Shown here: piece after piece, positions 9,789 through 64,000 of the stretch
Layout of the letters: each line of letters starts with the position of its first letter
Numbering within the stretch: the first letter of the stretch is position 1
From: Escherichia coli phage NG_S8
Sequence record: LC788711.1
Length of the DNA stretch: 64,000 bases
Direction: 5' to 3' (one strand)
Program-made: the position numbers and the translations under genes
Notes under the pieces: model-generated
What the model was told of the DNA's origin: nothing
The model's database searches: none
What the model saw: the letters and a program-made list of their open reading frames with translations, nothing else

Positions 9789-9802
9789 TTTGGGATATGT
9801 AA

Positions 9803-10128: not shown

Positions 10129-10138
10129 ATAAATGTAC

Positions 10139-10167
10139 TTGCTTTCGACTCAGTTTTCATATATAAT
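10139..10167 (+). promoter_or_regulatory. sigma70-type early promoter
   Basis: -35 TTGCTT 10139-10144, 17-bp spacer, -10 TATAAT 10162-10167. Confidence 0.6.
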
Positions 10168-10196
10168 ATTTATATAAATTGATGAGAGGATCAATT

Positions 10197-22300: not shown

Positions 22301-24119
22301 GACACTAAAATTCAGCAACGTTATGTCTTACGGTAAGGATATTGTAATTCATTTCGATAAGAATCCAGTTACTCAGTTAATCGGAGGAAACGGTCTAGGG
22401 AAGTCCACTATTGCTACTGTTATTGAGGAATTGTTTTATAACAAGAACTCACGTGGTATCAAGAAGGACGCCCTATTCTCTTGGGGTTCTCCGAAGAAAG
22501 AGTACGATATGCACGCTTACTTCTCGAAAGATGAAGATGAGTATGAGTTGCATAAAGTAGTTAAATCAACTGCTAAGGTTACACTGATTAAGAATGGAGA
22601 AGATATCAGTGGACACACAGCAACTCAAACGTATAAGATGATTGAAGAGATTATGGGTGGTGACTTCCAAACATTCACTAAACTGATCTATCAATCTGTA
22701 GGTTCCAACCTAGACTTCCTCAAAGCAACTGATGCGACACGTAAAGCTTTTCTTGTTAATCTGTTCAATCAGGAACAGTATAAAGAGATGTCAGAAACTA
22801 TTAAGGCTGATCGTAAAGAAGTGGCAAGTACGTTAAGTAACTTGCAAGGCCAGATGGCCGTAATTACGAAGATCCTCAATGGAAAAGGTAATCTCGGAAG
22901 TTTACAAGAGCCAGTTGAAGTTCCAGAGTTTGATGAAGAACCGTTAGCACAAGAACTTACTGAGTCGAAAATTAAGGCGGCATTAGCCAAATCACAAGAG
23001 GCTAATATTACTAAACTCCGTAATTTGGACAAAGCTGTACAAGTTGCCGAACAATCTTTCGAGCCTTTCAAAAATTTCCCTGCGCCCACTGACCAATCTG
23101 AAGAGATCTCAAGTGTTACGCGTGACCTAACGATTGTTACCTCACGTGCGGGAGAAGTCAAGAAACGTTATCAGAAGTTCAAGCAAGAGGCTTCAAATAC
23201 TGAATGTCCTACTTGTGGCACTCATCTTGATACAACTGCTGCTCAAAAAGCAATGGATATGGCTAGAACAGAGTATGATCCTCTATTTAAAGAGAAGCAA
23301 TCTCTTGAAGCTACGCTAGAGCAGTTGAAGAAAGAACAAGTCGAGTACACTGCGTATACTAGAGCTAAGGATGCTTTGGATAAGGCAATAGCAGCTAGGG
23401 ACGAGTTCAAAAATTCAATGAGTGATGCTTCTTTTGAAGAACTCAATGTGCAAATCCTACAGGTGCAAATCCGACAATTAGAACAGGAAATCGCAGATGG
23501 ACGTTCTAAAGTTGCAATTGCCAAAGAGCATAATGCAAATGTCGAGTTAGCCAATGCAAAGTATAAAGCGAAACTAGAACAGATTGAGAAAGCTGAGGCA
23601 GAAATGTCTGAGATAACGTCCAAACTGGATGGAGTATCAGAAGCTGTCGCTGATCTTGATATTCTGATAGCTGCATTGAAAAATCTGGTAGGATATAAAC
23701 TAGAGCATAGTGTGAAAGTATTTGAGGAATTGATTAATAAATATCTTTCTATTATGACTGGTGGTAAGTTCGCACTTGGATTTGAGCTTGATGAAACTAA
23801 ATTACAAGTAGTAATCTTCAATGATGGAAACCGTACCAGTATGGAGAACTGCTCTACTGGTCAGCAGAGTAGAATTAACCTAGCAACTCTGTTGGCAATT
23901 CGAATGCTGTTAACATCTATCAGCAAAGTTAATATTAATCTTCTATTCCTTGACGAAGTTATTAGCTTTATTGATACGAAAGGACTTGATACTCTTGTTG
24001 AACTATTAAATGAGGAAGATAGTCTGAACTCTATCATTGTTTCTCATGGGCATACGCATCCATTAGCCCATAAGATTACTGTCAAAAAAGATGCAGAAGG
24101 ATTTTCCTACTTAGAATAA
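22281..24119 (+). CDS. Rad50/SbcC-like ATPase
   Basis: Walker A GGNGLGKST, central coiled coil with CPTCG zinc hook, C-terminal LLFLDEV Walker B. Confidence 0.8.
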   Translation: MSKIIIKTLKFSNVMSYGKDIVIHFDKNPVTQLIGGNGLGKSTIATVIEELFYNKNSRGIKKDALFSWGSPKKEYDMHAYFSKDEDEYELHKVVKSTAKVTLIKNGEDISGHTATQTYKMIEEIMGGDFQTFTKLIYQSVGSNLDFLKATDATRKAFLVNLFNQEQYKEMSETIKADRKEVASTLSNLQGQMAVITKILNGKGNLGSLQEPVEVPEFDEEPLAQELTESKIKAALAKSQEANITKLRNLDKAVQVAEQSFEPFKNFPAPTDQSEEISSVTRDLTIVTSRAGEVKKRYQKFKQEASNTECPTCGTHLDTTAAQKAMDMARTEYDPLFKEKQSLEATLEQLKKEQVEYTAYTRAKDALDKAIAARDEFKNSMSDASFEELNVQILQVQIRQLEQEIADGRSKVAIAKEHNANVELANAKYKAKLEQIEKAEAEMSEITSKLDGVSEAVADLDILIAALKNLVGYKLEHSVKVFEELINKYLSIMTGGKFALGFELDETKLQVVIFNDGNRTSMENCSTGQQSRINLATLLAIRMLLTSISKVNINLLFLDEVISFIDTKGLDTLVELLNEEDSLNSIIVSHGHTHPLAHKITVKKDAEGFSYLE

Positions 24120-46749: not shown

Positions 46750-47963
46750 TCTTTATCCCCATCGGCAGTGCCTTGCGGTCTACCACCTTCTTGACCAGAT
46801 ACACCTGTTGCAGAACCAGCAACGTTAGCAGGAATACGAATCTTATTCATCTGCTCATCATCTAAAGGTTCAAGGTTAAGCTCTTCACGAGCCTCGTTAC
46901 CAGTCATGATACCGTTATTAACCAAAGAGGTTAAATGTTTAGCCTCAGCTTCTTTATCTGGCGTCAGTGCAGCTACTTCCTTAGTATTAGGAGTAACCTT
47001 GTAGCCAAAGAAGAAAGTAAGAGAACTAGTCAGCTTGTTCAGCATAGGAATGATAGTCATGTAATAGAACAATTCGATGTTTGGTCGAATGTTAGCATTA
47101 TTACCACCATCAAGTAACACTTGCGGAACACCAAAGGCAAGACAGATGGATTTATTAAATCCTTCGATATCTTCCTTGAAGTCTAGATCTTTAAAAGAGG
47201 ATATTTGGGAGTACGGTTTTGCTTTCATACCACCATCTAGAATCAGGACAGTAGACTGACCAGTACTAGGATTATAATCGAGTTGTAATTCTTCTTGTTT
47301 ACGCTCACGCAATTTCTTGTTCAGGATTTCATCCGTCTCAAGAATAAGACCAATCACAGTGCCGTTATCGAGGAACTTCTCTTTAAAGTTAAGCATTTTA
47401 GAACGCTTCTCAAGAGAGTCAATAACTGTAGCAACACGAGATTGTCCAGAAATTTGGGAGTTTGTGCCACACACGTAACTGTTATCCTTTATAAAGATAA
47501 TCTCATCTACGCGATAGTCTATCTGGTTATTAAATATGAATTTTTTGATAAACTTATTGGCATCTGCCTCTACTTGCATTAGTGCAGCAGGGACATGGTA
47601 AAGTGCTGTGCCATCCCAATAGATGTATGCACAACCCTCAAAAAGTAGGTCAGTGACTACAAGTCTACGGAATGTGCTTATATCCATGAATGGATTAGGT
47701 CGTACATTTAAGAGAGTGTCTAGAGTCTTTGCCTTGACGCCATTAGCGTACGTGACAATATTATATTTATCTCCGACAGTATAAGAACACTCCGCCGCAC
47801 TATCGATAACCATGTTAGCAGTTCGGTTGAGAATCTCAATCTTACTGTAGGCTTGTCCAGTGGTAAATGGCTTACGGTTAGTGCGATGACTAACTGGTTC
47901 CATGTCTCTTATAATACGTTGACCCGGATTTAGCTTTTCAGTAATCCAGCTTTTTAAACCCAT
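46746..47963 (-). CDS. portal protein (pb7-like, 405 aa)
   Basis: Size and position downstream of terminase; start overlaps upstream gene. Confidence 0.75.
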   Translation of the reverse strand: MGLKSWITEKLNPGQRIIRDMEPVSHRTNRKPFTTGQAYSKIEILNRTANMVIDSAAECSYTVGDKYNIVTYANGVKAKTLDTLLNVRPNPFMDISTFRRLVVTDLLFEGCAYIYWDGTALYHVPAALMQVEADANKFIKKFIFNNQIDYRVDEIIFIKDNSYVCGTNSQISGQSRVATVIDSLEKRSKMLNFKEKFLDNGTVIGLILETDEILNKKLRERKQEELQLDYNPSTGQSTVLILDGGMKAKPYSQISSFKDLDFKEDIEGFNKSICLAFGVPQVLLDGGNNANIRPNIELFYYMTIIPMLNKLTSSLTFFFGYKVTPNTKEVAALTPDKEAEAKHLTSLVNNGIMTGNEAREELNLEPLDDEQMNKIRIPANVAGSATGVSGQEGGRPQGTADGDKE

Positions 47964-48487
47964 TATAAGAACCTTGCGAATCCTGATTTAGTTTCAGTCT
48001 TGACTTGTGTCTTTTCTTGAGGATTCTGTAGCTTTTCCTTTTGTTTAAGAACCCATGCCTTCTGCTTATTAGCAGAAAAAAGGGGAGGTTCCTTAGTGTA
48101 CACCTTATGTAATAGTTGGTGATGGTGGACACAAAGGGTAACAGTGTCATCTACTAGCTCATGCCTATATCTTTCATAGAATGCCGTCCTATTTGAGAGG
48201 ACTGTTTCTTCGTCAGTGAAATCCAATTGGAGTTCTTTAGCAAATTTTTTAACTAGTAGAGACACTGTATGGTAATGATGAAGCTCTAATTCTTCACCAC
48301 AACCACAGATTTCGCAGCGATCGGCTTTTTTATATTGACTTTTTATACCGTCTCGCATGAGTGATATAGCATCACGTTTATATTTTACATTTCCTGCCAC
48401 AGTATTCTCCTCAACTGTATGAATATAGTATACATAATCATGTCGAATTTGTAAAGGGGATTTTAAAATGCAGGAATGGGATACCAA
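47963..48487 (-). CDS. HNH-type endonuclease-like protein (start uncertain; TTG 48487 or internal start)
   Basis: Zinc-finger HNH pattern CEICGCGEELELHHYH ... LCVHHHQLLH; between terminase large subunit and portal. Confidence 0.6.
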   Translation of the reverse strand: MVSHSCILKSPLQIRHDYVYYIHTVEENTVAGNVKYKRDAISLMRDGIKSQYKKADRCEICGCGEELELHHYHTVSLLVKKFAKELQLDFTDEETVLSNRTAFYERYRHELVDDTVTLCVHHHQLLHKVYTKEPPLFSANKQKAWVLKQKEKLQNPQEKTQVKTETKSGFARFL

Positions 48488-48514: not shown

Positions 48515-49831
48515 TTATTTCCCACGGGAAATTGAGTAAATTCCATAACGCAGTGCGTCACAAAGGTGAGAGTTTGCATCATGACGTGGTTTTTCACGTG
48601 ATAATTTCTCTTCGCCTTCCTGGAAGTCCCACTTGTAGTTCGCTAGGGCGTGGATCAATGAGGTACATGAAGCATCTACGATAATCTTACCTTGCTGGAA
48701 CAGTGCTTGTAGGCATGCCAGACCATCTAGGACAGATTTCTTAGCAGGAGCAGAAGCGATTTCATGTTCATATGCTAAGTCCTGACGGAACTGAGCAGCA
48801 GCGGAGTCTACAAATATACGATCAACATTATAACGATCTATGCAGTGTTGGATATAAGCAGCGTGTTGAGCTGTAGTCTTTTCAGCTTGCTGATATTCTT
48901 CCAGTACGTAATAAACATCAGTATCATAGTGATACTTGATAGTAAGAACTGCTGTAGGGTCACGATAACCAACGTCGATACCAAGTAATGTTTCGAAAGC
49001 CTCATCATCTTTAAAGAAGTGGCGCATACCTTTGAGGTCTTTAACATGTTCGATAGCATTGAAGGTGTCAAAGATCTGACCTTCGAATACAGAGAAGTCA
49101 GCCTCATATTCTTGACGGAAGTAGTTTTTACTAACAGTACGACGCGCTTCTTCGATATCGTTCAGATCAGCACGTGGGTTATCACGATATGTACCATGAA
49201 TAGATACCCAGTTAGGTAGAGTTTCGTTAAATCCTTTCTCATAGAACTCTTTAAACCAGTTACCACCACGAGGTGTGGAAATAAACAGAGCTTTAGAGTT
49301 TGGCTTATCTAGAGTAGGACGTAACTGAATATCGAAAGCTGCACCACCAACGTCGGAAATCGCTGCTTCGTCAAAAATGATGAAGTCATATGAACGACCA
49401 ACCGCGGAGTCAGCCTGCGCCGCAGAAGCCAGCTTAAAGAGAGAACCATTCGCTAGTTCAATCTCTTTATCTTTTGCGTTCTCACGTTCAGTCTGTAATC
49501 CATACTTCTTAATAAGACCACGAATCTGTGACCAACCTATGTTAGCCAGTGAGTAGTTAGGTGCAACTACCAGCACCTTCACATTGGGTTCCAGAAGTTT
49601 TAGGAACCCAAGTGTATATGCGATGAATGACTTACCTACACGACGTGATACACATGCAGTCACGAAGCGGTGTCTTGGGTCTCCCAGCGCATTAATGATT
49701 GCAATCTGAGGGGCATTAGGTGTAATTCCCTCTTGAGCTAGAATGCTAGAGACTGGCAGACGGAAGAATCGTTTGTCAATACCAAAGTCAATAACATCTG
49801 TGGTGTTAATATAGTCTCTAGAGACTTTCAT
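48515..49831 (-). CDS. terminase large subunit (438 aa)
   Basis: Walker A-like segment VSRRVGKSF; C-terminal nuclease-like acidic residues; length equals T5 TerL. Confidence 0.85.
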   Translation of the reverse strand: MKVSRDYINTTDVIDFGIDKRFFRLPVSSILAQEGITPNAPQIAIINALGDPRHRFVTACVSRRVGKSFIAYTLGFLKLLEPNVKVLVVAPNYSLANIGWSQIRGLIKKYGLQTERENAKDKEIELANGSLFKLASAAQADSAVGRSYDFIIFDEAAISDVGGAAFDIQLRPTLDKPNSKALFISTPRGGNWFKEFYEKGFNETLPNWVSIHGTYRDNPRADLNDIEEARRTVSKNYFRQEYEADFSVFEGQIFDTFNAIEHVKDLKGMRHFFKDDEAFETLLGIDVGYRDPTAVLTIKYHYDTDVYYVLEEYQQAEKTTAQHAAYIQHCIDRYNVDRIFVDSAAAQFRQDLAYEHEIASAPAKKSVLDGLACLQALFQQGKIIVDASCTSLIHALANYKWDFQEGEEKLSREKPRHDANSHLCDALRYGIYSISRGK

Positions 49832-50313
49832 TATCTCTTACCTCCTCCTGCTAGAGCGGTAATAAGATTCATATAGTTTTCGTCACCACTTCCAGCAATA
49901 ATATTATTCTGAATATTAGTCTGGTTAGCCGGAGTACGGGCTGCTGCCTTCACTTTCTCCAGTTCTACCATCATTTTCATTTCTTCCATCTTCATCTTGT
50001 GCGCCTTCCAGAGAATATCCATGATATCCTGGTCAGAACCCATGCCAGTTTCTTCGAGTTCTTCCAACTTGCGCTTGATAACTTCATCAAGAACTCCGAA
50101 TAAGCGGTCACGATTACGGAAGCCGCTTTCCATAAAGATATCGTTAAGATAGTTTTTAACTTCCCCACGATTCATTATATCACGGAATGCAATCTCGGAC
50201 ATTCCAAGACTACGAGCGGCGGCAGGAACATCACTACCGCACTGTAAATAGGCTTCAATAACATCCATGCCTTCGGGAGACATGAGATCGGGAACTAATA
50301 CATCATTTGCCAT
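49831..50313 (-). CDS. terminase small subunit (160 aa)
   Basis: N-terminal HTH-like DNA-binding region; immediately upstream of and coupled to TerL. Confidence 0.65.
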
Positions 50314-53455: not shown

Positions 53456-53567
53456 GTTAGCGCTAATTACCAATTCTCGAAATTTCATAAGATTACACAT
53501 GAAGGTGTGCCCAGAGGTTCCCTAGATGAGAATGAGTCTCATTACCGCCCCGGTACTTAGCAAGCTA

Positions 53568-53614
53568 ATAGTCACACTATGTTATCATCACATAGTGTGA
53601 CTATTTTATTTTTA
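53568..53614 (+). terminator. rho-independent terminator closing the llp / small-membrane-protein unit
   Basis: Perfect 14-bp stem ATAGTCACACTATG/CATAGTGTGACTAT then TTTTATTTTTAA. Confidence 0.7.
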
Positions 53615-53618
53615 ATTG

Positions 53619-54353
53619 TTATGCAACTTTTAATTTATCAATGAATTGTTGCGGGCTGCAACTATATTCCGCGCGTTCTTCCTCGGTCATACCTTCCCAA
53701 CACATTTTTAAACGTTCGGCTAGGAATTGATAATCGTTATCATCATCAAGCGATTCATCAATAAAGGTTTCACCGATCAATGTTACGCCGATTGATAGGA
53801 TATCGTTAACGGCTTGAGCGTCCAGCGTTTTAAATCCAGCACTTGCCGCCGCTGATAATACACCTTTATGATCATCAATCATCATAAAATCAGCGTTAGG
53901 ATATAGCTGTTTAAACAGTTCAAAGTAATAAGACTTATATACAGCGTCTTTGCTGTGATATATTTCGCTAACCTTATCCGCTTCAAAGTATTTGTGCAGT
54001 GTATCGCGGGAAAATACGCGGATATTACTATTTCCGCGCCCTCGCAGCCCTTGTTTGCGTAAATAAAAGTAATCGCTTTTAGACATAAGGCGAGCGGTAC
54101 AAATAATGTTTAAAGTATTTGCATCATTCATACACTGGCGCATATATTCAACCAACGGCAATAAAGAATCCTGCATAATTAAATCATGTTTACAGGCTCC
54201 GCGTGAATACTTATTTAAATTTAAATTCCCGTTATCATCAAAGCAAGGCGCTACACGGTGGAAAGAATTAATGATAGTTCCGTCTAAGTCCCAAATCATA
54301 ACGCGGGAAATATGCGGGAAAGCGCGGGCAATATTCAAGGTTACTTGATTCAT
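53619..54353 (-). CDS. HAD-superfamily phosphatase (dmp-like 5'-deoxyribonucleotidase candidate, 244 aa)
   Basis: N-terminal MIWDLDGTIINSF (HAD motif I DxDGT); size matches T5 dmp. Confidence 0.6.
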   Translation of the reverse strand: MNQVTLNIARAFPHISRVMIWDLDGTIINSFHRVAPCFDDNGNLNLNKYSRGACKHDLIMQDSLLPLVEYMRQCMNDANTLNIICTARLMSKSDYFYLRKQGLRGRGNSNIRVFSRDTLHKYFEADKVSEIYHSKDAVYKSYYFELFKQLYPNADFMMIDDHKGVLSAAASAGFKTLDAQAVNDILSIGVTLIGETFIDESLDDDNDYQFLAERLKMCWEGMTEEERAEYSCSPQQFIDKLKVA

Positions 54354-54440
54354 TTGTTACATTCTCCATTTAAGGGATTTAGGTTAATTCAATCTTGCCA
54401 GCTAATTATATTGGATTAGCTGGCAATGTTCAATTAACTA

Positions 54441-54833
54441 TTAGTTAGTGAGGCCATACGCTAGCGCGTCACCGATAAAGCTAAGATCTTCACCATGTAC
54501 GCTAGAACGAATTCCCGCGCAAGTGTAAACCATTGCGCTAGCTTCTGGATTGCAGACCGGACACGGCTTAACAACTGCAAACGCTAGACCGGATTTAAGC
54601 GCATCAATAATAATTGTTTGCACTGTCAAAGTATCAGCGTAAACGCCTTTTGCTTTTGTATGGCTTGCCACTTTGCCGGTATCATAAGCAAAGGTAGTAA
54701 CCTGCAAAGCGTCGTTATAATTCAGCAAATCGAAATTAACTTGCCCCGCCTCGACGTGATAACGTTCGCCATTAGAATAAACTAGAACGATGGAAGAAGT
54801 AGCGCGGTCAAAAGGAATGTTTTGGTTTTTCAT
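54441..54833 (-). CDS. hypothetical protein (130 aa)
   Basis: ORF in pre-early-like block. Confidence 0.5.
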   Translation of the reverse strand: MKNQNIPFDRATSSIVLVYSNGERYHVEAGQVNFDLLNYNDALQVTTFAYDTGKVASHTKAKGVYADTLTVQTIIIDALKSGLAFAVVKPCPVCNPEASAMVYTCAGIRSSVHGEDLSFIGDALAYGLTN

Positions 54834-54865
54834 GTTTATGACTCCAGATTATTTAATTACGGGAT

Positions 54866-55144
54866 TTATTGAAAAAATACATTTAAAGATAAATCAGTTT
54901 TACGAAAATATGTTTCGTCGCCGTCTTTCCTTTCTTGATTAAGGTAATCGCCTGTCATTACCTGAATAGAATCTTTTCCGAAAAAGATCATATTTTCGCC
55001 AATATTACTATCCCATACGGCGTACATTCCCGCGTACATTCCACGGGTAACTAAATAAACGCAACTATCAAAAGACATTTCCGACCATGCAATATCTTCT
55101 AAACAATTGCTATCAGGGATAGATATATTAATTTTACTAGCCAT
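54866..55144 (-). CDS. hypothetical protein (92 aa)
   Basis: ORF in pre-early-like block. Confidence 0.45.
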   Translation of the reverse strand: MASKINISIPDSNCLEDIAWSEMSFDSCVYLVTRGMYAGMYAVWDSNIGENMIFFGKDSIQVMTGDYLNQERKDGDETYFRKTDLSLNVFFQ

Positions 55145-55196
55145 TTAATAAACCTTTTATTAATGGCGGTATATTTCAACCGCCGATTAAGTTTAA

Positions 55197-56864
55197 TTAT
55201 GCAAAGAATTTACCGTTTTTGAAATCAATCAAAGTACGTTGCCCGTTTGCATAGGTAATTAAATGCGTTTGCGTCCAGCTACTAGCGCCAACGTTGTAGC
55301 CCATATCAAGCGACCCCGCCACGCCAGCGGTATAAACGCCGCCGTATATGCTAGCCGTGTGAGTATGGCCAGTGTTGAGGCGTCCCAACTTTTTAAACTG
55401 CTTAGGATTGCCCCGACTGCCATTAATGCCATTGTGACCATGTACGCCGCATTCAATGCCAGCGATTTTAAACGACTGGTCAGTAGTCAGGAAAATAGCG
55501 TTAAATTCGCAACCTGCGACACTACGCAAGGCGTAATCTAGCACGTTAAAGGTATCATCCTTTTCAGCAATAGCGGCGTATATAGCAGCGTTTAGACGGT
55601 GATACAATTCCGCGTTTGCGGGATCGTCTTTAATGTTAGCGTTACGATCATCTAACCAGCGGGATAAAGCTAAATCATGGTTAGATTCAACAATGATTGT
55701 TTGAGAGAAATCACGTTCCATAGATTCTAATACGCGTCCAGTATCGATAAGATCATCAATAACTTTATCACGTCCGGCGGCGTATTGTTTCGCAAGGAAT
55801 ACACCACTAGCGCGGTTATGATGGTTACGCGATGTAAAATCATGCACGTCATGAATAAATTGATATTTCGGTTTAAGAATATCAAGCAAGCTGTTTTCAC
55901 TAGCCCATGATGCAACGGCGCATTCATCATCTAATTTTTCGGCGTGAATATCGCCATATTGCAAGCCTAGAACATGATCGGACGTTTCAAAACATCCGGT
56001 AGGCATAGCGCAAACATTCAAATCATAGAACATTCCGCTTTCATCCATTGTTTCAAGCTGGCGGCAATAAAATTCCCCGTCGTCGTCAAATTCTACCAGC
56101 AAAGCGCCGAAATTATGCAGAGCCTCAGCTTTTTGACCTGCTTTCTGCTGAATGTAGTTTTTAAGCGTAGCCGTTCCGGTTGAATACATACGGCGCACTA
56201 CTTCACCTTTTAACGCTGGTACACTTTCAGCGGTAATTTTTGCCGCACCAATTGCCAGACCTTCAATATTTAAAGCCGTGGCGGTTTCTGCGAATCCTGT
56301 AAGCGGATAATCTGCCGTTGGTAATACGTTAATTTCAGACATGAAAGCAAAGCGGCGATTATTCAGGAAAACATTTTTATCACAGATATATTTATCAAAT
56401 GCGGGATCGTATTTAATTTTTTCTTTGCTGCCGTCGCCGTTCTGGAATCCATTTTTATTGTAAATGAATTTACTAACCAGCAATTCACCGCCGATATATT
56501 CAGCGAATTTTTCCAGACTTGCTAAAAAGTTTTTATGCGGGAAAGTATTATTTTGAATCGACGTTAGAATAAAACGGCGACCGGATTTAACTTCCCATTG
56601 TTCAATGGTACTAGAAACAATTCCCGCCGCTTCTGGGCGATCATCATTTTTAATCGCCTTTTCAGCTTTTGCCGCTTTCGGTTTAGCTGGCTTATTTGCT
56701 TCCAACCAGTCGCAAATTGCGGTTGAATGTTTCGTTGTATCGTAAACAGCTTTTGATATATCGTCGCAAACTTCCAGCTTAGTAGCGCGTAAACGTTTAC
56801 CGTAGAAATTAAAATCAGCGGCAAGTTTAACGATCTGGGCTTGTTTTTCTGCGGAAATATTCAT
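55197..56864 (-). CDS. A1-like pre-early protein, calcineurin-like metallophosphoesterase/nuclease (555 aa)
   Basis: Motifs GDIHAE, GHNG, GHTHT; size about that of T5 A1 (556 aa); upstream neighbour is A2-sized ORF. Confidence 0.65.
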   Translation of the reverse strand: MNISAEKQAQIVKLAADFNFYGKRLRATKLEVCDDISKAVYDTTKHSTAICDWLEANKPAKPKAAKAEKAIKNDDRPEAAGIVSSTIEQWEVKSGRRFILTSIQNNTFPHKNFLASLEKFAEYIGGELLVSKFIYNKNGFQNGDGSKEKIKYDPAFDKYICDKNVFLNNRRFAFMSEINVLPTADYPLTGFAETATALNIEGLAIGAAKITAESVPALKGEVVRRMYSTGTATLKNYIQQKAGQKAEALHNFGALLVEFDDDGEFYCRQLETMDESGMFYDLNVCAMPTGCFETSDHVLGLQYGDIHAEKLDDECAVASWASENSLLDILKPKYQFIHDVHDFTSRNHHNRASGVFLAKQYAAGRDKVIDDLIDTGRVLESMERDFSQTIIVESNHDLALSRWLDDRNANIKDDPANAELYHRLNAAIYAAIAEKDDTFNVLDYALRSVAGCEFNAIFLTTDQSFKIAGIECGVHGHNGINGSRGNPKQFKKLGRLNTGHTHTASIYGGVYTAGVAGSLDMGYNVGASSWTQTHLITYANGQRTLIDFKNGKFFA

Positions 56865-56973
56865 AACTAATTCAACTCCTATAAAGGGATAAATATTAAT
56901 ACTGGCAATATTGCCAAATATAACGCCTTGCCTGAAGTGAGGACAATTTAAAAGGCGTTATAATTTGCAACAT

Positions 56974-57198
56974 TTAATTAAGCGGCATTAAACTAGAACA
57001 AAAGCCAAATACAATGCCAATTGTAAGAAAGATAATTGACAGATATTTTTGAATGTTCGCGTTTTTGCGGAAATTATTTGCGGCGTAAACGTTATTAATT
57101 CCAATTATTGCCAGAATTGACCTCGTATAATTCAGAATAAAAGCGGCGGCAATAATAAATAAACCTAAAATAAACGCTTCGTTAGGATAAAAGATCAA
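56974..57198 (-). CDS. small two-TM membrane protein (74 aa)
   Basis: TTG start after AAAGGAG; two hydrophobic segments. Confidence 0.45.
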   Translation of the reverse strand: MIFYPNEAFILGLFIIAAAFILNYTRSILAIIGINNVYAANNFRKNANIQKYLSIIFLTIGIVFGFCSSLMPLN

Positions 57199-57248
57199 GA
57201 TTATTCTCCTTTAAGGGTTAGCGGGGAATATTCCCCGCTAGTTAAAAT

Positions 57249-57665
57249 TTATTCACCTGCGGCCTGTTTTACTTCCTCCGCTACGCCTAACAATTGCGCT
57301 ACAGCTTCCAGCGTTTCAAGTTTTGCACTTTCCAGACTTGCCAGATCGTCGGCGTCTTTAATAACGCCAGCGTCAATGGCATGTTTAGCCATAACGCGCA
57401 CATAGTGAGCTTTACGGACACTAGACCCGCCGCCAACTTTACGCGGTTTATCGCTTTTCTGGTATGCTTTTGCGCTTGTCAGTTTAGAACGTACAGAAAC
57501 AGGACTTGCAGCGCCAACGGCGGCGGCAATTTCTTTCAGGCCGTCACTGTTAGCAAATTCAATTCCGCTTTTAGCGACCATTTCAGAATACATAGAAACA
57601 GCTTTTTCGGTGTTTTCTTCGTTCCAAGAGAATTTTGCGGTTTTTTCGGTTTTAACGTTAGACAT
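57249..57665 (-). CDS. A2-like pre-early DNA-binding protein candidate (138 aa)
   Basis: Size and position upstream of A1-like gene; RBS GGAG. Confidence 0.5.
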   Translation of the reverse strand: MSNVKTEKTAKFSWNEENTEKAVSMYSEMVAKSGIEFANSDGLKEIAAAVGAASPVSVRSKLTSAKAYQKSDKPRKVGGGSSVRKAHYVRVMAKHAIDAGVIKDADDLASLESAKLETLEAVAQLLGVAEEVKQAAGE

Positions 57666-57951
57666 AATTTAATACTCCATTCAATTATTAATTAAGGGAT
57701 TATGATTAACTAAATGTTAATCGCTATATATTCTATTAGCTAGAATATATAACGGAAACATTTTATTTTTATTTCCAGTTTCAAGCGGTTTATTAATTCC
57801 CGAATATATTTATATTCTCACCTTATCCGGCTTGCCAGAGAATTAATAAGGCAACATTGTATTTATACGCTGTTTATTATTCCGTTCACGCTAGGAATAT
57901 TTCGAGTTATCTTTATTGCCTAACTAAGCATGATATGTAAGGCGCATTAAT

Positions 57952-58203
57952 TTATGCGATAGCTTGCCATTTATCATCTTTCTGAATGATTTTTACAACG
58001 TCGCCAGATTTAACACGGACGTTATAAATAGGCTTGCCGTGGTTACTGCGTTCCGTTTCCGCATAGACCGCTTCAATCTTATCAAAGGGATCAAGCGCCG
58101 CACCTTTAATACGTTCGGCTTTTCCGGTTAATTCATCCGTTTTAGTTACAAAAGGAATGAATACAGATTGACCTACTTTCGGCGCGGTAATAACGTTTTG
58201 CAT
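57952..58203 (-). CDS. hypothetical protein (83 aa)
   Basis: ORF in pre-early-like block. Confidence 0.5.
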   Translation of the reverse strand: MQNVITAPKVGQSVFIPFVTKTDELTGKAERIKGAALDPFDKIEAVYAETERSNHGKPIYNVRVKSGDVVKIIQKDDKWQAIA

Positions 58204-58334
58204 TTTTAATACTCCGGTTTATTGGGGATTATTCCACAATAGCGCCTCGATACTTTGAAACGCTATTAGATTATAATCCGCTAGGAGTTAGCCTAAACAT
58301 TACCGTTACCCAAATTTTTAAAGAGCAGTTACTA

Positions 58335-58360
58335 CAGGGAACATCTTAAAACCTATCGGC
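58335..58360. repeat. left copy of 26-bp inverted repeat (CAGGGAACATCTTAAAACCTATCGGC)
   Basis: Reverse complement matches 58620-58646 at 24/26 positions. Confidence 0.8.
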
Positions 58361-58367
58361 TAGCGTG

Positions 58368-58586
58368 TTAAGCGTTTTTTAAACTTTTTTCGATTTGATG
58401 GGAGTTATATAAATCAATCATTATATTACGCCACACCATTTCCAGACCTTGCTGCTTGCCTTTCTTGTATTGCTTGAATCGGTATTTTACCGATCGTTGC
58501 GCTACTGTCAACAAATTTTTTGTTCTGCTATCTAATGCACTAGCAGGTTTCGCACTAATCACTAAAGCGTTTTTTGATTTGATCAT
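58368..58586 (-). CDS. small basic protein (72 aa), flanked by 26-bp inverted repeats
   Basis: ORF rich in K/R/Q; TATAAT-like element within 20 bp upstream on minus strand. Confidence 0.5.
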   Translation of the reverse strand: MIKSKNALVISAKPASALDSRTKNLLTVAQRSVKYRFKQYKKGKQQGLEMVWRNIMIDLYNSHQIEKSLKNA

Positions 58587-58619
58587 TATCGTCGATTCCT
58601 TATATTATATAAGTTTACC

Positions 58620-58646
58620 GCCGATAGGCTTTAAGATGTTCCCTAG
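58620..58646. repeat. right copy of 26-bp inverted repeat (GCCGATAGGCTTTAAGATGTTCCCTAG)
   Basis: Partner of 58335-58360; adjacent 12-bp direct repeat TTTTTAAAGAGC also at 58315-58326. Confidence 0.8.
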
Positions 58647-59318
58647 TTTTTAAAGAGCGCGGCGGTAAACTTCCCCGCCGTGTAGTTCGTCATTGCCGCC
58701 CTACGTGATAAATAATAGGAGAATACCGAGAAGGGCGCAACCTTATTTTTGTAAAGAAACGTAAAGACAAACGCCACTGCACCACGTCCAGCGGCGCACT
58801 AAATTTAATGAAACGGGCGCGCGAATAACACCAAAACAACCATTTTAGCAAGTAATTTTTTCATTTATATTTGCTTTGCCCTACTTGACAAAATCTAAAA
58901 TCCTCGTGGTGAGGTTTTCTCGGTGTACCCCTTATGATTGCCTATCTTTTCCTTTGAGGCGCTTAGAATGCGTTACAGAGCGTTTTAGACCCTGTTAATA
59001 ACTTATACAAAAAGCAAAAATGAAATTTAATGAGTTATCCACTTGATTTTTCAAAAAAGTATTTTCTGCTATTATTTTTCATTGACAAATAAGTTTAGAC
59101 GTGCATTGATTGGTTAGCAGACTAACAATCGCTAGGATGATAATCACGCTGGTGGATTGTAACAGCTGAAACAGTTAGCAGACTATTAATACTCTAAAAA
59201 CCTATTAGCCAACTAACTATTTCATATTATATAATATACTTATAAATTAAAGAGAAATAATAACTATAAGAAACTATCGGCTAAGTGAGAACCACTATCA
59301 TTTAGGTTATTCACAAAG

Positions 59319-59376
59319 TTATCCACAGCACAAAATAACTTGACGCAATAGGCGACGTTTTGGCGACTTATCCACA
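59319..59376. promoter_or_regulatory. pair of perfect DnaA boxes (TTATCCACA at 59319-59327 and 59368-59376) plus near-matches
   Basis: Exact 9-mers; near-matches TTATTCACA 59308-59316 and TTATCCACT 59033-59041. Confidence 0.6.
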
Positions 59377-59396
59377 GACTTATATACAGGTTATCC

Positions 59397-59416
59397 TACT
59401 GTATAAATATACAGGG
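59397..59416. promoter_or_regulatory. LexA (SOS) box-like palindrome TACTGTATAAATATACAGGG
   Basis: CTGT-N8-ACAG with AT-rich spacer, close to E. coli consensus TACTGTATATATATACAGTA. Confidence 0.55.
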
Positions 59417-59663
59417 TAAATAGGTAGCAGTAACAACCGCAATCAAATTTAAGCGGCCTAGAACGCATTCTAAGCGATTTTCTCACTGCTACCCTTATTA
59501 TAATAAAGCCTTGTGTACGCTTACAGAGAGCTAGAAATAGAAAACGCGCGGTTATCATAAAAACAGGCAGTAAGCAAGAAATAAAAAACCTTTTCTTTTT
59601 TCTTGCCCCTAGCGAACAATTATCTATATCATTCACTCACCGATTAACGAGGGAGACAAAGAA

Positions 59664-60683
59664 ATGTCTACTGTAAGAATTGCAGTACCAGCAAACGCCA
59701 CTATTATTAAGGGTAGTTTGCGCAACCTGCTAGATGGTAGTAGTGCGGCAAGCGTACAACATACCGCTACTATTGTAGAAAAGATTCACGATGAAATTTT
59801 AGACAATAATGATACTCATTATTCAGTTGATGATTTCACGCTATTACTAGACCAGACAAGGGCGCTAGTAATTTTCAACCGTGATTATCACATTTTCCGT
59901 AATAGTCGGGGAACTGATATTGATTTTATCATTGTTGGTTATAGTGAGTCTCATAGTGGTTACATTGCGCGATTATATAACGTGCAAGAAAAAGAGCAGG
60001 TAACAGCAACAAAAGTAAATAATATCAGACTGGATAGTGTCGGATCGTTATTAAATAGTATCTGGCGTGAATTATCATCCAGTTATAAAGGTGCTGATAG
60101 TGACGCAATCGAAACAACTGGCGTATTGTGTTTTGAACGCGGTAGCGGTAACATGTTGATTCCTAACGATTATTTAGAGTATGGGAATGAATCAAACGTT
60201 GCAAACGCTGGATTTACACTTTTCCCGCTTGACAATGTAACAAAACAGGCTGTAAACTCTCAAACTTCAAGCGCAATTGCGCAAACTACTGAAAATAAAG
60301 GAAATAACACTATGTCTAAAGTAACCGCTATCGTTGCCGCTAATAAATCCGCCGCCGCTACCGCTGCAAAACTGGAAGCGGGTAAAGTAGCACTAACTCA
60401 GCTTACAAAAGTAGCGGCTAAAGCCCTGCCTTCTGGTATGGCTGGCATGTTCGCTAAACAGTATTTAGATACTCCGGTCGGGCGCGTTGTTGTTGCCAAC
60501 TTGTTAAATCTGGCAATCGAACAATACGCACCGAATAACCAGAAAGCGCGAATTGTTGCTAAAGCCGCAATGGATGCCGCAATGCTGGAAGTGGTACAGA
60601 GTTTCAATATTTCTGAAATGATCGACAAGGCAATCGAGGGAATCAACATTGATGCTTTGACTGCTAATATTTCAGAAGAGTAA
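59664..60683 (+). CDS. hypothetical protein (339 aa) with Ala-rich helical C-terminal half
   Basis: RBS GAGGGAG; first gene of plus-strand block after 1-kb non-coding region. Confidence 0.65.
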   Translation: MSTVRIAVPANATIIKGSLRNLLDGSSAASVQHTATIVEKIHDEILDNNDTHYSVDDFTLLLDQTRALVIFNRDYHIFRNSRGTDIDFIIVGYSESHSGYIARLYNVQEKEQVTATKVNNIRLDSVGSLLNSIWRELSSSYKGADSDAIETTGVLCFERGSGNMLIPNDYLEYGNESNVANAGFTLFPLDNVTKQAVNSQTSSAIAQTTENKGNNTMSKVTAIVAANKSAAATAAKLEAGKVALTQLTKVAAKALPSGMAGMFAKQYLDTPVGRVVVANLLNLAIEQYAPNNQKARIVAKAAMDAAMLEVVQSFNISEMIDKAIEGINIDALTANISEE

Positions 60684-60741
60684 TAATAACAAGCGGGAAT
60701 TAATTTTCCCGTTTTCTTCCCTTTTAGTTAGGAGACTAATT

Positions 60742-61233
60742 ATGTTTGGTAGCAGAAATTATGGCAACCCTATTGAAGCACGATCCCTTAATCATGACGC
60801 AATTGTATTCACTCATGCGTCTACCGGTTATTGTGGATCAGATGGGAATGATTATCATTTCGTTCCCGCTGGTGACGATATTGATGATCTATGTAATGAG
60901 GCAGGTTATGAAAATGCTTGCTCTTATGGTCTAGAAGTTATTGAAGTAGACGACGGCGAATATGAGGATAATGATAATATTGAATGCTCCGCTTATCATT
61001 ATCAGTTAAGTGAATCAGGTTGTTATATTGGCGGCGGCGATCCTATTAATTCCATCACTGAAATAATTATTGAAAATGGTGGCGTTTCGCTGAATGGTAA
61101 CAAGGCGTTACTATATGCAAACCGATTAAAGCAACTTGTATATATTCCTGATGGGAAAGAATGGGAAGAATACAACGTTCTAATTGCAGAATTGAAAAGC
61201 TGTTTCGGCGTGGAAGTGGTAGAAATAGCCTAA
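60742..61233 (+). CDS. strongly acidic protein (163 aa), candidate DNA mimic
   Basis: RBS TAGGAGACT; about 32 Asp+Glu against about 7 Lys+Arg. Confidence 0.65.
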   Translation: MFGSRNYGNPIEARSLNHDAIVFTHASTGYCGSDGNDYHFVPAGDDIDDLCNEAGYENACSYGLEVIEVDDGEYEDNDNIECSAYHYQLSESGCYIGGGDPINSITEIIIENGGVSLNGNKALLYANRLKQLVYIPDGKEWEEYNVLIAELKSCFGVEVVEIA

Positions 61234-61341
61234 TGTAAAGTTTTGTAAAGGTCGCCTATTATGGCGGCCTTTTTTGTTATAATGCCTTTACACCGAAACG
61301 GTGGATTGAAAATTTTCCCTGATTTCTAGGAGGCGTTAAAA

Positions 61342-61572
61342 ATGGTTGCTTTCTCTTCTTCTGACTCTCTTTTCACTGGTAAAGGTTGGGTATCTAATCG
61401 CTGGATTATTGATCAGATGGTTTCTGAATTTGGGATTGGTAAAACTTATGTTACCATTCAGGCGCTTTATGATAATGATCAGATTGATCAGCAAACCGCC
61501 GGATTTTTGCTGGACACGTTGAAAGCAGAACATTGCACTAAAAAGCAAGCGGCAAAAATCGTTTTAATGTAA
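61342..61572 (+). CDS. hypothetical protein (76 aa)
   Basis: RBS CTAGGAGG. Confidence 0.55.
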   Translation: MVAFSSSDSLFTGKGWVSNRWIIDQMVSEFGIGKTYVTIQALYDNDQIDQQTAGFLLDTLKAEHCTKKQAAKIVLM

Positions 61573-61619
61573 TTATTAAAAGGGGGTATATTATCCCCTA
61601 AGTTCTAGGAGCTAATAAA

Positions 61620-61769
61620 ATGGTTATTTTTCGATCTATTCTGGCTAGTATCTTGGGCGCTATTTTATCGCTGTTTGTAATAGCTTTCGGCGTTCACGTG
61701 GTTATTATTGGAGCAGGTATCGCGGGGTTTTCTTACTTGTTAGGCTGTATGACTGGTAAAGGGGAATAA
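61620..61769 (+). CDS. small two-TM membrane protein (49 aa)
   Basis: RBS CTAGGAGC; hydrophobic segments ILASILGAILSLFVIAF and VVIIGAGIAGFSYLL. Confidence 0.5.
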   Translation: MVIFRSILASILGAILSLFVIAFGVHVVIIGAGIAGFSYLLGCMTGKGE

Positions 61770-61771
61770 AA

Positions 61772-61984
61772 ATGTTAAAGAATGTTTCCCTTGCCCGTTC
61801 CAAAGGTTTTAAGCTGGTGGATGTTAACACGTTCGAGCGTCCAGATTGTAAAATCGAATATGTAGCACGCAACAAAAACGCTTTCCGTGTTACAGAAAAG
61901 AAATTTGACAAGCGGGGCAATTTGGTAGCCGAAACGATTAAACACTTTGCCACCTTTTACGCTGCATTTCGTGGGGTATTATGA
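61772..61984 (+). CDS. hypothetical protein (70 aa)
   Basis: RBS AAAGGGGAA. Confidence 0.5.
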   Translation: MLKNVSLARSKGFKLVDVNTFERPDCKIEYVARNKNAFRVTEKKFDKRGNLVAETIKHFATFYAAFRGVL

Positions 61985-62082
61985 GATCCTTATATATTGC
62001 TCTAGCGTTTGCTACCGTTGGCGTTATTTGCTCATTCGCTGCATTTGTTTTAAAAATGTACCTGATATTTTCCCAGCTTTAG
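61981..62082 (+). CDS. small hydrophobic protein (33 aa)
   Basis: ATGA overlap with upstream stop; single TM-like segment. Confidence 0.3.
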   Translation: MRSLYIALAFATVGVICSFAAFVLKMYLIFSQL

Positions 62083-62093
62083 GAGCTTGACAA

Positions 62094-62438
62094 ATGGTAA
62101 TTTATGAGGGCAATCGCTTTATTACTAATTGCCGTCCGGCATTATTAGCAAACTATTTAAATCAGCTTTCACCAGTTTATAAAGGCGTAGTTAATATCTA
62201 TGAGGGCAAAGCACATTATAAAATTTCTGCCGTTGTCGCCCGTGAACTAGCGTTTCAATTTTTAACTTTTGGGTCTTGTGACGTTCAGGTTATGGGGGAA
62301 GCGTTAATAGCGGAAAATGAAAATGAATTTATTGACATTTTCCGCAAAGTATGTACGGAGCGCCTGATTATGAAAGGCGCATATATTCAATCAACCGCTG
62401 AAAGTATTGAAACAGCGTTTCGAAAGGTGGCGCAATGA
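62094..62438 (+). CDS. hypothetical protein (114 aa)
   Basis: RBS TTAGGAGC. Confidence 0.55.
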   Translation: MVIYEGNRFITNCRPALLANYLNQLSPVYKGVVNIYEGKAHYKISAVVARELAFQFLTFGSCDVQVMGEALIAENENEFIDIFRKVCTERLIMKGAYIQSTAESIETAFRKVAQ

Positions 62439-62635
62439 CTAAAGATGAAGCACTAGAAAAAATGAAACAAGGTTTCAAAGTTAGTAATCAATATTTTACT
62501 AGCGATGAATTTTTGTACATGAAAGAAAACGGCGTGATCATGTCAGAAGATGGTTACAATTTTAATGATTGGTTTTTCAATATTCGCAAGGGGGAGGAAT
62601 GGAAGCTAGACGGTTGGAGCGTTTACCGTGAATAG
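62435..62635 (+). CDS. hypothetical protein (66 aa)
   Basis: ATGA overlap with upstream gene. Confidence 0.5.
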   Translation: MTKDEALEKMKQGFKVSNQYFTSDEFLYMKENGVIMSEDGYNFNDWFFNIRKGEEWKLDGWSVYRE

Positions 62636-62761
62636 CTGGTGGCGAAAAACACAAAGCCATAAATCTAATAATACCGCTGGGAAACATTCCCAGCGTTTAC
62701 GATTTGGTAATGGCTTTACAATGATATTGATAATCATTCTCATTCTAGGAGCGATGGCGTT

Positions 62762-62956
62762 ATGAGTGATAAAATTGTTGTAACTAAAACTACTGTTACC
62801 GTTGATACTTTCTTTGTGCCTGATACGCTGGAAAATCGGCAAGCGGTGGAGCGTGGCGATTATGATAAAGTGATTTATGATAACGATGGTTACTACCAAC
62901 ATTTGGTAGACTCCTACGGCGAAAGCGAAAAGATCACACATCGACTACCAGACTAA
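62762..62956 (+). CDS. hypothetical acidic protein (64 aa)
   Basis: RBS CTAGGAGC; followed by hairpin plus T-run. Confidence 0.5.
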   Translation: MSDKIVVTKTTVTVDTFFVPDTLENRQAVERGDYDKVIYDNDGYYQHLVDSYGESEKITHRLPD

Positions 62957-62962
62957 TAATAA

Positions 62963-62990
62963 CGGGGCCGATAGTTGCGCCCCGCCTTTT
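62963..62990 (+). terminator. terminator-like hairpin after last gene of plus-strand pre-early block
   Basis: Stem CGGGGC/GCCCCG then CCTTTT. Confidence 0.45.
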
Positions 62991-63102
62991 CTGCCTGCAA
63001 ACAAATTTCCCCTTATTAAAGTACCTCCTCCAAAAATAAACGCGTTAGGATGCGTTACAGAGCGTTTTAGAGCTATATTAGAGTTATTCACTACGTAGGA
63101 AT

Positions 63103-63122
63103 ACTGTATAAATATACAGTAG
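63103..63122. promoter_or_regulatory. LexA (SOS) box-like palindrome TACTGTATAAATATACAGTA
   Basis: Matches consensus at 18 of 20 positions, both CTGT/ACAG half-sites perfect. Confidence 0.6.
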
Positions 63123-63202
63123 AATAACCTGTTGATAAGTCTGTTGAAAACGCCTCAAAACCGCTAGGATTTTGTCAAATCAAATCGTGCTGTTAATAAA
63201 CC

Positions 63203-63211
63203 TGTGGATAA
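63203..63211. promoter_or_regulatory. DnaA box (TGTGGATAA, reverse orientation)
   Basis: Exact reverse complement of TTATCCACA. Confidence 0.5.
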
Positions 63212-63232
63212 CTTAAATAACAGTGTTTCTCA

Positions 63233-63388
63233 CTTCGCTTTCTAAATGCGACTCATTCTCATTATGCGACTCATTCGTACTCAACTCTGTAAAGGATAAC
63301 CATTCTCATTCCGCTTTCTAAATGTGAATCATTATCATTCGCATTCAACTTCTCAAATGCGAATCAATCTCATTATCATTCGCATTTC
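63233..63388. repeat. three degenerate ~36-40-bp direct repeats with internal palindrome AAATGCGAAT...ATTCGCATTT
   Basis: Units starting near 63233, 63311 and 63349. Confidence 0.7.
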
Positions 63389-63424
63389 GGCAGGCAGGGC
63401 ATTTTCATTTTGCCCTGCGCTTTT

Positions 63425-63992
63425 GTGCAAATCCGACATTTGCCCCCACGGATTACGTGCCAGCGTGCATGTGCGAATCCGACAATTTTTGGTAGTGTGC
63501 AAATCCGATGGGAAATATTTTTTATATGTGCGAATCCGACAATGAATTTTCCTAAAAACTCCAGCAATCAGCAACTGCGATGCAATCCAGCTGGATTTAC
63601 TAGAGTATGTGCAAATCCGACATGAGTTTATTTGTGCAAAACCGACAAGATTTTTGTGACTTCGATGAGAGGGTGTGTGATTGTGTGGGTTTGGGGAGAA
63701 GTGCGAATCCGACGAGGTTTTTGGGAGGAACTATGGAGGGTGCAGCTGTAGTGGTGCTTCAGCACCGGTTTGCTGCGTTTTTGGGGATAATGTGGGATGT
63801 TTTGGCTAGAATTGAGATTAGTGGAGATAAAGCGAAATTTTATTAGCAAAATGGGGCAAAATCGCTTGACAAGTGAAAATTCCTGTGGATCTAAAAAACT
63901 CAGGCAAATATGGGCCTTCGGCCCGAAATAATGCTGCTATTTTCAGTGTTCCTAAAAACTTTGGAGACTCCTATCAATGTGCAAATCCGACC
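63425..63992. repeat. array of eight direct 14-bp repeats, consensus GTGCRAATCCGACA, irregular spacing
   Basis: Copies at 63425, 63471, 63497, 63528, 63609, 63634, 63701, 63979, all same orientation. Confidence 0.85.
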
Positions 63993-64000
63993 ATAAATTT

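Follow-up and report, generated by a model that had tools for sequence, protein, structure and literature searches.

What the cluster of short direct repeats near one end of a stretch of DNA from Escherichia coli phage NG_S8 represents, and what might read it, is the question raised by this locus. The stretch analysed comprises 64,000 nucleotides (sequence record LC788711.1; the whole of it is referred to below as the window), and the repeats occupy positions 63425-63992. An initial annotation had described them as copies of a 14-bp motif, had taken the motif to be undefined, and had offered an injection-stop signal or an iteron-like origin as possible roles. The comparison presented here identifies the array as a member of the repeat family that is annotated in phage T5 as 'direct repeat D' (DRD), and therefore as an already known feature and not a new one. 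We set out the evidence for that identity, describe where the repeats lie relative to the nick site and the terminus of the terminal repeat, and then consider which protein may recognise them.

Copies, unit and polarity

Allowing up to two mismatches, the motif GTGCRAATCCGACA has 10 matches in the 64-kb window, all on the + strand, against an expectation of 0.42 from shuffled sequence (none of 100 shuffles reached 10). Eight of these form the array, with start-to-start spacings of 46, 26, 31, 81, 25, 67 and 278 bp; the eight same-orientation copies and their irregular spacing (25-278 bp as measured) were thus correctly described, while two further copies, which lie next to each other within a D13/exo2-like gene, had been missed. 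The copies are:

23448-23476, +, two adjacent DRD copies (starts 23448 and 23463, 15 bp apart) within the D13/exo2-like gene
63425-63438, +, DRD copy 1, GTGCAAATCCGACA; position and sequence as in T5 DRD copy 1
63471-63484, +, DRD copy 2, GTGCGAATCCGACA
63497-63510, +, DRD copy 3, GTGCAAATCCGATG; two mismatches (...GATG)
63528-63541, +, DRD copy 4, GTGCGAATCCGACA
63609-63622, +, DRD copy 5, GTGCAAATCCGACA
63634-63647, +, DRD copy 6, GTGCAAAACCGACA; one mismatch
63701-63714, +, DRD copy 7, GTGCGAATCCGACG; one mismatch; inside a G-rich tract; without T5 counterpart
63979-63992, +, DRD copy 8, GTGCAAATCCGACC; one mismatch; the counterpart of T5 DRD copy 7

The window ends before the array does: a ninth copy stands 35 bp after copy 8 (at about 64014) in those closest relatives that share the spacing pattern, and a tenth, some 1.8 kb further on, falls within the first early gene.

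A fuller unit of 15 nt, T-GTGC-R-AATCCGA-Y-A, describes the repeat better than the 14-nt motif. It is accompanied by a T-tract at +19 to +21, usually 5-7 nt past the unit, TTTT being found after 55% of copies against a background of about 20%; unit and T-tract together span about 26 bp, while the spacing between units is flexible (13-81 bp). The polarity is strict: opposite-strand copies number zero in the window (10 of 10 on the + strand), in T5 (12 strong matches) and in 48 IMG/VR stretches; over about 60 genomes in all, the copies keep to a single strand. The core of the unit, GTGCGAATCC (for example 63471-63481), is one base removed from the universal tRNA T-arm sequence GTTCGAATCC, and a weight-matrix scan caught a T5 tRNA pseudogene (T5 41373, - strand) owing to this likeness, which is probably coincidental.

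Identity with T5 direct repeat D

NG_S8 is a T5-like phage of the Epseptimavirus group, as the initial annotation had supposed in general terms, and its array region matches more than 500 T5-like phage records. The closest relative of that region is Salmonella phage 3-29 (99.6-99.7% identity), and the proteins A1 and A2 match their counterparts in Obesumbacterium phage Ob_P at 100% identity. The T5 record AY587007.1 annotates DRD copy by copy, with a unit of TGTGCAAATCCGACA: copies 1-9 lie at 9672-10409, copy 10 within ORF019 (12073), and copies 11 and 12 within exo2/D13 (79019 and 79035). Four kinds of agreement identify the NG_S8 array with this family. Compared over the family unit TGTGCRAATCCGACA, the window copies agree with T5 at 12-14 of 14 positions. 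The spacings of copies 1-6 (46, 26, 31, 81 and 25 bp) are equal in the two phages. The location is the same, T5 having its nick at 9661-9668 and DRD copy 1 at 9672, and the window having CCCTGCGC at 63413-63420 and DRD copy 1 at 63425. Finally, the dispersed pair at 23448/23463 is identical to T5 copies 11 and 12 (79019/79035, spanning 79019-79048).

The two arrays therefore share a 14-15 nt unit, its strand, the spacing of copies 1-6, a place with palindrome J and nick 1 on one side and the terminal-repeat end on the other, copies just outside that repeat and a pair within D13/exo2; they differ in that the window has an extra inner copy (63701), while the counterparts of T5 copies 8-10 would fall past the window end. 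The motif is accordingly not undefined, being both annotated in T5 and listed by Davison (10.1101/866236): 'nine DRD repeats' are counted there as part of the injection-stop region, T5-like phages are said to conserve their order, and the model put forward "assigns no role" to them. The motif search in other T5-like genomes that had been proposed as a check finds the motif conserved across the family, with lineage-specific variants.

Architecture of the right terminal-repeat region

The array belongs to a region between convergent transcription units, the features of which are as follows:

63103-63120, no strand, perfect palindrome ACTGTATAAATATACAGT, counterpart of T5 palindrome D (9330-9349)
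63130-63150, -, pair 1 of DnaA-box-like 9-mers (as reverse complement), TGTTGATAA/TGTTGAAAA, boxes 3 bp apart
63191-63211, -, pair 2 of DnaA-box-like 9-mers (as reverse complement), TGTTAATAA/TGTGGATAA, boxes 3 bp apart
63227-63388, +, four copies of a 37-nt partly palindromic repeat (TTCTCA...AAATGCGAATCATTCTCATT) with associated inverted repeats
63393-63418, no strand, hairpin GGCAGGGCA-N8-TGCCCTGC, counterpart of T5 palindrome J (9650-9666); its right arm overlaps the nick site
63413-63420, -, nick site CCCTGCGC, homologue of the T5 'major single-stranded nick 1, 7.9%' (9661-9668)
63425-63714, +, DRD copies 1-7, within the terminal repeat
63648-63867, +, G-rich, C-poor tract
63866-63891, +, terminus element TTGACAAGTGAAAATTCCTGTGGATC, with the predicted right end of the terminal repeat after 63891
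63912-63924, no strand, conserved hairpin GGGCCTTCGGCCC, just outside the terminal repeat

The palindrome ACTGTATAAATATACAGT forms the left edge of the conserved repeat region, and related palindromes stand in the same place in Proteus phage Stubb, Aeromonas phage TS3 and Vibrio phage D124. The DnaA-box-like pairs, 220-300 bp upstream of the array, are the counterpart of T5 IRD'spacerIRC', which Davison describes as paired DnaA/DnaA* boxes 3 bp apart and regards as a candidate injection-stop signal. The 37-nt repeats, which correspond to direct repeats C/E and palindromes E-I of T5, and the hairpin that follows them bear out the longer palindromic repeats and the hairpin that had been reported upstream of the array, with the copy number of the former now four.

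The nick site ends 4 bp ahead of DRD copy 1, the inner copies end about 180 bp ahead of the terminus, and copy 8 lies 88 bp beyond the terminal repeat. Since the terminal repeat is predicted to end there, the right physical end of the genome is predicted to follow 63891, at GTGGATC^TAAAAA (^ marking the end); the repeat ends annotated independently in T5, BF23, SPC35, EscoHU1, Sw2 and Sepoy all fall at GTGG(A/C)TC^TAAAAA, and that of Stitch 5 bp further. By homology with Stitch the left end lies at about 53509, which gives a terminal repeat of about 10.4 kb (about 53509-63891), and the array is thus placed at its inner (right) boundary, about 9.8 kb beyond dmp, much as had been proposed from map position.

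No other 220-nt stretch of the window is as GC-skewed (0.56, against a mean of 0.02 and a standard deviation of 0.14) as the tract that separates the inner copies from the terminus, and equivalent tracts are found in T5 (skew 0.69), Stubb, TS3 and D124. Its G-rich strand runs 5' to 3' toward the genome end. We also observed six exact Chi octamers (GCTGGTGG) in the window, at 11317, 12642, 21464, 59148, 61813 and 62635, all on the + strand and none on the - strand, where 0.78 would be expected on both strands together (T5 has 5 vs 1); three of these window sites fall within the final 5 kb of the terminal repeat, every one of the six has the orientation read by RecBCD entering from the right genome end, and in Stubb and Vibrio phage D124 a Chi site lies inside the G-rich tract just ahead of the terminus.

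Conservation across T5-like phages

Across more distant phages the unit is retained where its surroundings are not. Klebsiella phage Sugarland has nine copies of the identical unit despite flanks that are only about 67% identical, and Pantoea phage AAS21, the A1 protein of which is 63% identical, has eight copies of the unchanged unit; in Sugarland/IME260 and AAS21 the copies stand on both sides of the terminus, as they do in the window. Two metagenomic contigs (L019 and L055) carry the unchanged unit among unalignable flanks and unrelated upstream repeats, with five units in 15-bp tandem. This tandem packing (L019 7880-7999 and L055 5102-5221, five units at 15 bp; Vibrio phage D124, rc-L062 5150-5190, three units at 13 bp) compares with spacings of 17-81 bp elsewhere, and whatever reads the DRD units tolerates very different spacings.

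In other lineages the unit itself has changed. Aeromonas phage TS3 has five same-strand units of the AGTACTAAACCGACA type after CCGGCGCC, and in Vibrio phage D124 units of ATGTGCGAAACCT, of which three form a 13-bp tandem, come after CCGCGCCC sites; these variant units always lie between a GCGC-type site and a TTGACA...TGTGG element. In the Aeromonas and Vibrio phages with a changed unit the small terminase (TerS) is 41-48% identical and A2 diverges in parallel, A2 being conserved in all array-bearing lineages. Invariance of a unit combined with lineage-specific change is the pattern usually seen where a site co-evolves with a phage protein. Proteus phage Stubb, finally, has a single degenerate unit GTGCGTAATCGACT and no array, and retains the palindrome, the DnaA-box pairs, CCCTGCGC, the G-rich tract, the TTGACA element, TerS, A1 and A2.

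The two ends of the terminal repeat differ sharply in conservation. Across 32 sequences, conservation in a terminus block at 63830-63950 reaches about 90% or more, which is no lower than that of the units. Comparison of T5 with the window gives 88% identity for the array, 82% for the right terminus inside the repeat and 87% for it outside, whereas the first 110 nt inside the left terminus (53509-53618 versus T5 1-110) stand at 60%, the random level (0.58); as yardsticks, dmp is 84% and TerS about 94% identical. Because the right terminus is conserved, the left is at random level and TerS is about 94% identical, the conserved recognition apparatus would appear to sit at the right boundary. The left terminus is unrelated between Tequintavirus (T5, BF23) and Epseptimavirus (Stitch, the window), while the right terminus is conserved between them. 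The T5 ends have a short inverted motif in common, TCCACTG versus TCCACAG read inward, an observation based on two or three genomes.

Nick sites, the sci system and called repeat ends

The nick that precedes the array belongs to a published system, in which the consensus 5'-R/GCGCRGG-3' leads to a nick in the - strand (PMC3517423), and two genes mapped to the late region, sciA and sciB, are responsible for nicking. Common to all four nick sites of T5 are CCCTGCGC, which is CCCGCGC at nick 4, and, some 35-40 nt further downstream, a TTAC element. This second element, which reads GGATTACG, GGATTACGG, ATATTACATG and GTGTTACGCG at the T5 sites 9661, 22250, 39660 and 78651, has its window counterpart, GGATTACG, at 63450-63457, and it may be the 'additional sequence' that nick-site recognition needs according to the literature. 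Among the four T5 nicks only nick 1 is followed by DRD; since nicks 2 and 3 have no DRD nearby, we rejected the idea that DRD is a general part of a nick site.

The T5 records place the sciB name on an open reading frame (ORF) that PHROGs classes as a small terminase. The genes of the window that bear on this and on what follows are:

47963-48487, -, ORF directly downstream of the large terminase, with a weak HNH-endonuclease match (phrog_8048, E 2e-5)
48515-49831, -, terminase large subunit
49831-50313, -, small terminase, homologue of T5 'SciB' (160 aa; phrog_3802, E 2e-90), a candidate partner of the array
53619-54353, -, dmp
55197-56864, -, A1
57249-57665, -, A2, pre-early DNA-binding protein (phrog_1725 'DNA binding protein'), a rival candidate partner

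The small terminase gene lies directly upstream of the large-terminase gene, and T5 sciB is likewise next to the large-terminase ORF. Lying next to the terminase, the ORF with the HNH match is a candidate gene for the sci nicking enzyme.

The nick site also matters for how genome ends have been called. In Seabear (L002 3522), Sugarland (L058 2861) and Stubb (L059 11415) the 'repeat ends' reported by PhageTerm fall exactly after a CC(C)TGCGC nick site, several hundred bp short of the terminus or of a TTGACA element resembling it; in Seabear the distance, judged by homology, is about 470 bp. These calls probably reflect a nick that mimics a terminus in the read starts. The practical consequence is that three deposited genomes have their software-called repeat boundary on a nick site, as against the terminus mapped in seven others.

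Copies within D13

The D13/exo2-like ORF (22281-24119, 612 aa) contains its DRD pair in frame, where it encodes the peptide VQILQVQIRQ in a coiled-coil region; in T5 the pair lies 368 bp downstream of major nick 4. Excess synonymous conservation was not found at the pair, as 12% of equal-sized segments of the gene match or exceed it in conservation, and the D13 genes of more distant DRD-bearing phages lack the pair. A functional constraint on the pair was rejected on these two grounds, and the copies inside D13 are probably stray ones.

What might read the array

In proposing a function, we need to account for a polar set of units that is fixed in position, that flanks the place where the right end of the genome is formed, and that varies by lineage. 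We tentatively favour the possibility, which we hold to be well short of established, that the DRD units are binding sites for the small terminase (the SciB homologue), by analogy with cosB or pac elements. That a protein binds the array, that it is this protein and that the purpose is packaging are things we infer. In such a model, the array, the nick site, the G-rich tract and the conserved terminus would make up one composite cis-acting element that marks the right end of the repeat, with the DRD units as same-oriented protein-binding sites. In replicated concatemers the small terminase would load on the units that flank the cut site, and would position the large subunit to cut at GTGGATC^TAAAAA (63891); the units would also set the direction of packaging, like the lambda cosB R-sites or SPP1 pacL/pacR.

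This reading is favoured because the units flank the cut, because the right boundary is conserved and the left is not, and because the unit varies by lineage. The distances are those of a terminase site, with the inner copies ending about 180 bp before the terminus and the outer ones starting 88 bp after it, and array, nick, G-rich tract, terminus and outer copies form one contiguous conserved non-coding block, in which the nick and the end-forming cut are the only biochemical events that have been mapped. The adjacent nick, moreover, belongs to the sci system, one of whose two mapped genes, sciB, the T5 records assign to the ORF classed as small terminase. A unit that spans about 26 bp with its T-tract, at flexible spacing, fits multiple independent helix-turn-helix (HTH) contacts on bendable DNA, and the model of TerS has an N-terminal HTH-like domain followed by long helices, with a weak, low-confidence similarity to the DNA-binding domain of SF6/SPP1 TerS. 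In the general model given in the PhageTerm paper, staggered nicks at specific sites, followed by extension synthesis, produce long direct terminal repeats, a process that needs recognition at fixed positions.

There are precedents for such an arrangement. In phage lambda the cosB sites R1-R3 are bound by the small terminase gpNu1 next to cosN, and in SPP1 the pacL and pacR boxes flank pacC. The resemblance lies in several short asymmetric repeats within a few hundred bp of a terminase cut site, in orientation-defining, bendable DNA and, for SPP1, in repeats on both sides of the cut. The differences are that lambda cosB has three sites as against 8-10 DRD copies, for which binding is our conjecture, that lambda and SPP1 make cohesive ends or headful cuts whereas here there are 10-kb direct terminal repeats, and that the other terminus is without an array. 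In phage T7 the SRL and SRR arrays reportedly flank the 160-bp terminal repeat; these too are short direct-repeat arrays that abut terminal-repeat boundaries and have a poorly defined role, but they consist of regular 7-bp units on both sides of a short repeat, in contrast to irregularly spaced 15-nt units at one boundary of a 10-kb repeat.

A number of observations weigh against recognition by terminase. Stubb keeps TerS, the nick site and the terminus-like element with one degenerate unit; because it keeps TerS, A1 and A2 without an array, an array is not something that every lineage needs for packaging or for transfer. DRD copies are missing from the left terminus, which means that DRD cannot be a general cut-site signal. 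TerS and A2 fall to about 40-64% identity in the same lineages, and covariation cannot pick one of them. Among close relatives the difference between unit columns (0.88) and other columns (0.83) is modest. The assignment of sciB is 'putative' in an older GenBank record, and Foldseek searches with the low-confidence structure models (single-sequence AlphaFold, predicted local distance difference test score of about 59) gave no significant fold match and only weak HTH-domain matches; a search of solved structures returned nothing for TerS or A2. The same polarity may have come from local duplication. The model also assumes that the right end is packaged first, as left-end-first injection would imply, and one paper states the opposite order. 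Lastly, the array begins exactly where first-step transfer stops, which fits a role in injection equally well.

It is to injection that two of the alternatives refer. The main rival is that the array serves as a track for second-step transfer, bound by A2 (with A1) or by a host protein, both of which the initial annotation had named as candidates; being the first DNA to enter once the pause ends, it would offer a succession of same-oriented sites at which the DNA could be captured or ratcheted and entry restarted. We regard this as doubtful while giving it real weight. The array starts about 50 bp right of the estimated first-step shear point, with the 7.9% nick 4 bp ahead of it; second-step transfer depends on A1 and A2, A2 being a DNA-binding dimer without a known site that is present in all array-bearing lineages; the polarity matches one-way entry; and the repeats have no role in Davison's model. 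The unit, however, is asymmetric, whereas a dimeric HTH protein should favour symmetric sites; nor does such a track give a reason for the tight link to the terminus block or for a conserved right end beside a diverged left one. The missing array of Stubb, which has both A1 and A2, weakens this proposal and terminase recognition equally. The narrower claim that the DRD array is the missing cis-acting partner of the A1 and A2 proteins we consider rather unlikely. That the array is itself the injection-stop signal, with a protein or structure on the repeats halting DNA exit at 8%, is improbable. It does lie in the non-coding 'Repeat Region 3', which contains the stop signal and has been cloned as the region carrying it; the array is conserved throughout the family, and by our own estimate the T5 array (9672-10409) has about the length of the DNA in the tail at the pause; to this extent the link drawn by the initial annotation holds. 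Yet the T5 first-step shear point is estimated at about 9618, with the stop signal thought to lie left of it, in IRD'spacerIRC'/DRE with its DnaA boxes (Davison), and the DRD array starts right of it, at T5 9672 (window 63425), although old estimates of the size of first-step DNA carry an uncertainty of several hundred bp. An array right of the stop would still be outside the cytoplasm at the pause and beyond the reach of cytoplasmic proteins, and Stubb lacks it. The array is thus in the right region and is not the published injection-stop candidate.

The remaining explanations carry less weight still. As a specificity or enhancer element of the sci nicking system for the major nick at 7.9%/99.5%, the array would be in keeping with the presence of a unit 4-18 nt past a GCGC-type site in T5, the window, Sugarland, AAS21, L019, Stubb, TS3 and D124 (twice), and with the 368 bp between the D13 pair and T5 nick 4; we nonetheless think it quite improbable, given that T5 nicks 2 and 3 have CCCTGCGC and TTAC elements and no DRD nearby, that one unit would suffice and an array of 8-10 goes unexplained, and that nick-less T5 mutants are viable according to published work while conservation of the array is strong. 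Local duplication without function would naturally leave the units on the same strand, and the 15-bp runs of L019/L055, the 13-bp run of D124 and stray intragenic copies without extra constraint accord with it; set against these are a unit that is invariant across genera with unalignable spacers and a position that is fixed across the family while the unit varies by lineage at that position, which make pure duplication very improbable. The notion of replication-origin iterons, which the initial annotation had entertained, draws on direct repeats with DnaA-box-like sequences upstream, and clusters of same-oriented 10-20 bp protein-binding repeats are indeed characteristic of iterons and of ParR-type centromeres. 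It is scarcely credible here, where no initiator or partition gene adjoins the array, which lies at a chromosome end between convergent operons, and where T5 origins map near mid-genome and the replication genes are silent during first-step transfer (Davison).

Several other candidates were tried and set aside. CRISPR arrays have regular repeats of 24-48 bp, unique spacers and cas genes, whereas this is a 14-15 nt unit at spacings of 25-278 bp with conserved spacers in a lytic phage genome; the earlier argument against CRISPR is upheld. An RNA element was rejected in that Rfam gave no match at E<=1 in 62700-64000, and a cluster of promoters or terminators in that counts were no higher than in shuffles and the CCGACA of the unit has no usable -10 after it. 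Resemblance to CRP, IHF, dif/XerC or Ter sites was judged by eye, and none was convincing. A scan of 185,579 genomes for host-chromosome arrays of the unit returned only T5-like DNA in two metagenome-assembled genomes (MAGs) and unrelated tandem repeats, with none of the matches in Enterobacterales. The two MAG contigs, attributed to 'Spirochaetia' and 'Clostridia' (SABI01000336.1 and RZZU01000077.1; L093 and L105), are T5-like DNA of the array region and look like binning contamination.

Significance for T5-like phages

This study adds a new instance to a long-annotated repeat family. The repeats have been annotated in T5 since publication of the genome and reviews list them as conserved, so that as a sequence feature the array is a rediscovery. 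Comparison across the family sharpens the hypotheses on its function and settles none of them. The DRD array can now be seen as a strictly polar, family-wide element, locked between a nick site and a very conserved right terminus, with a unit that varies by lineage, and it is the right end of the repeat and not the left that carries conserved signals. The array bears on the way in which T5-like phages cut and duplicate their 10-kb terminal repeats, and equally on their two-step DNA transfer; if it were the cis-acting partner of A1 and A2, a 50-year-old problem, that of two-step transfer, would gain a defined DNA site and a testable mechanism.

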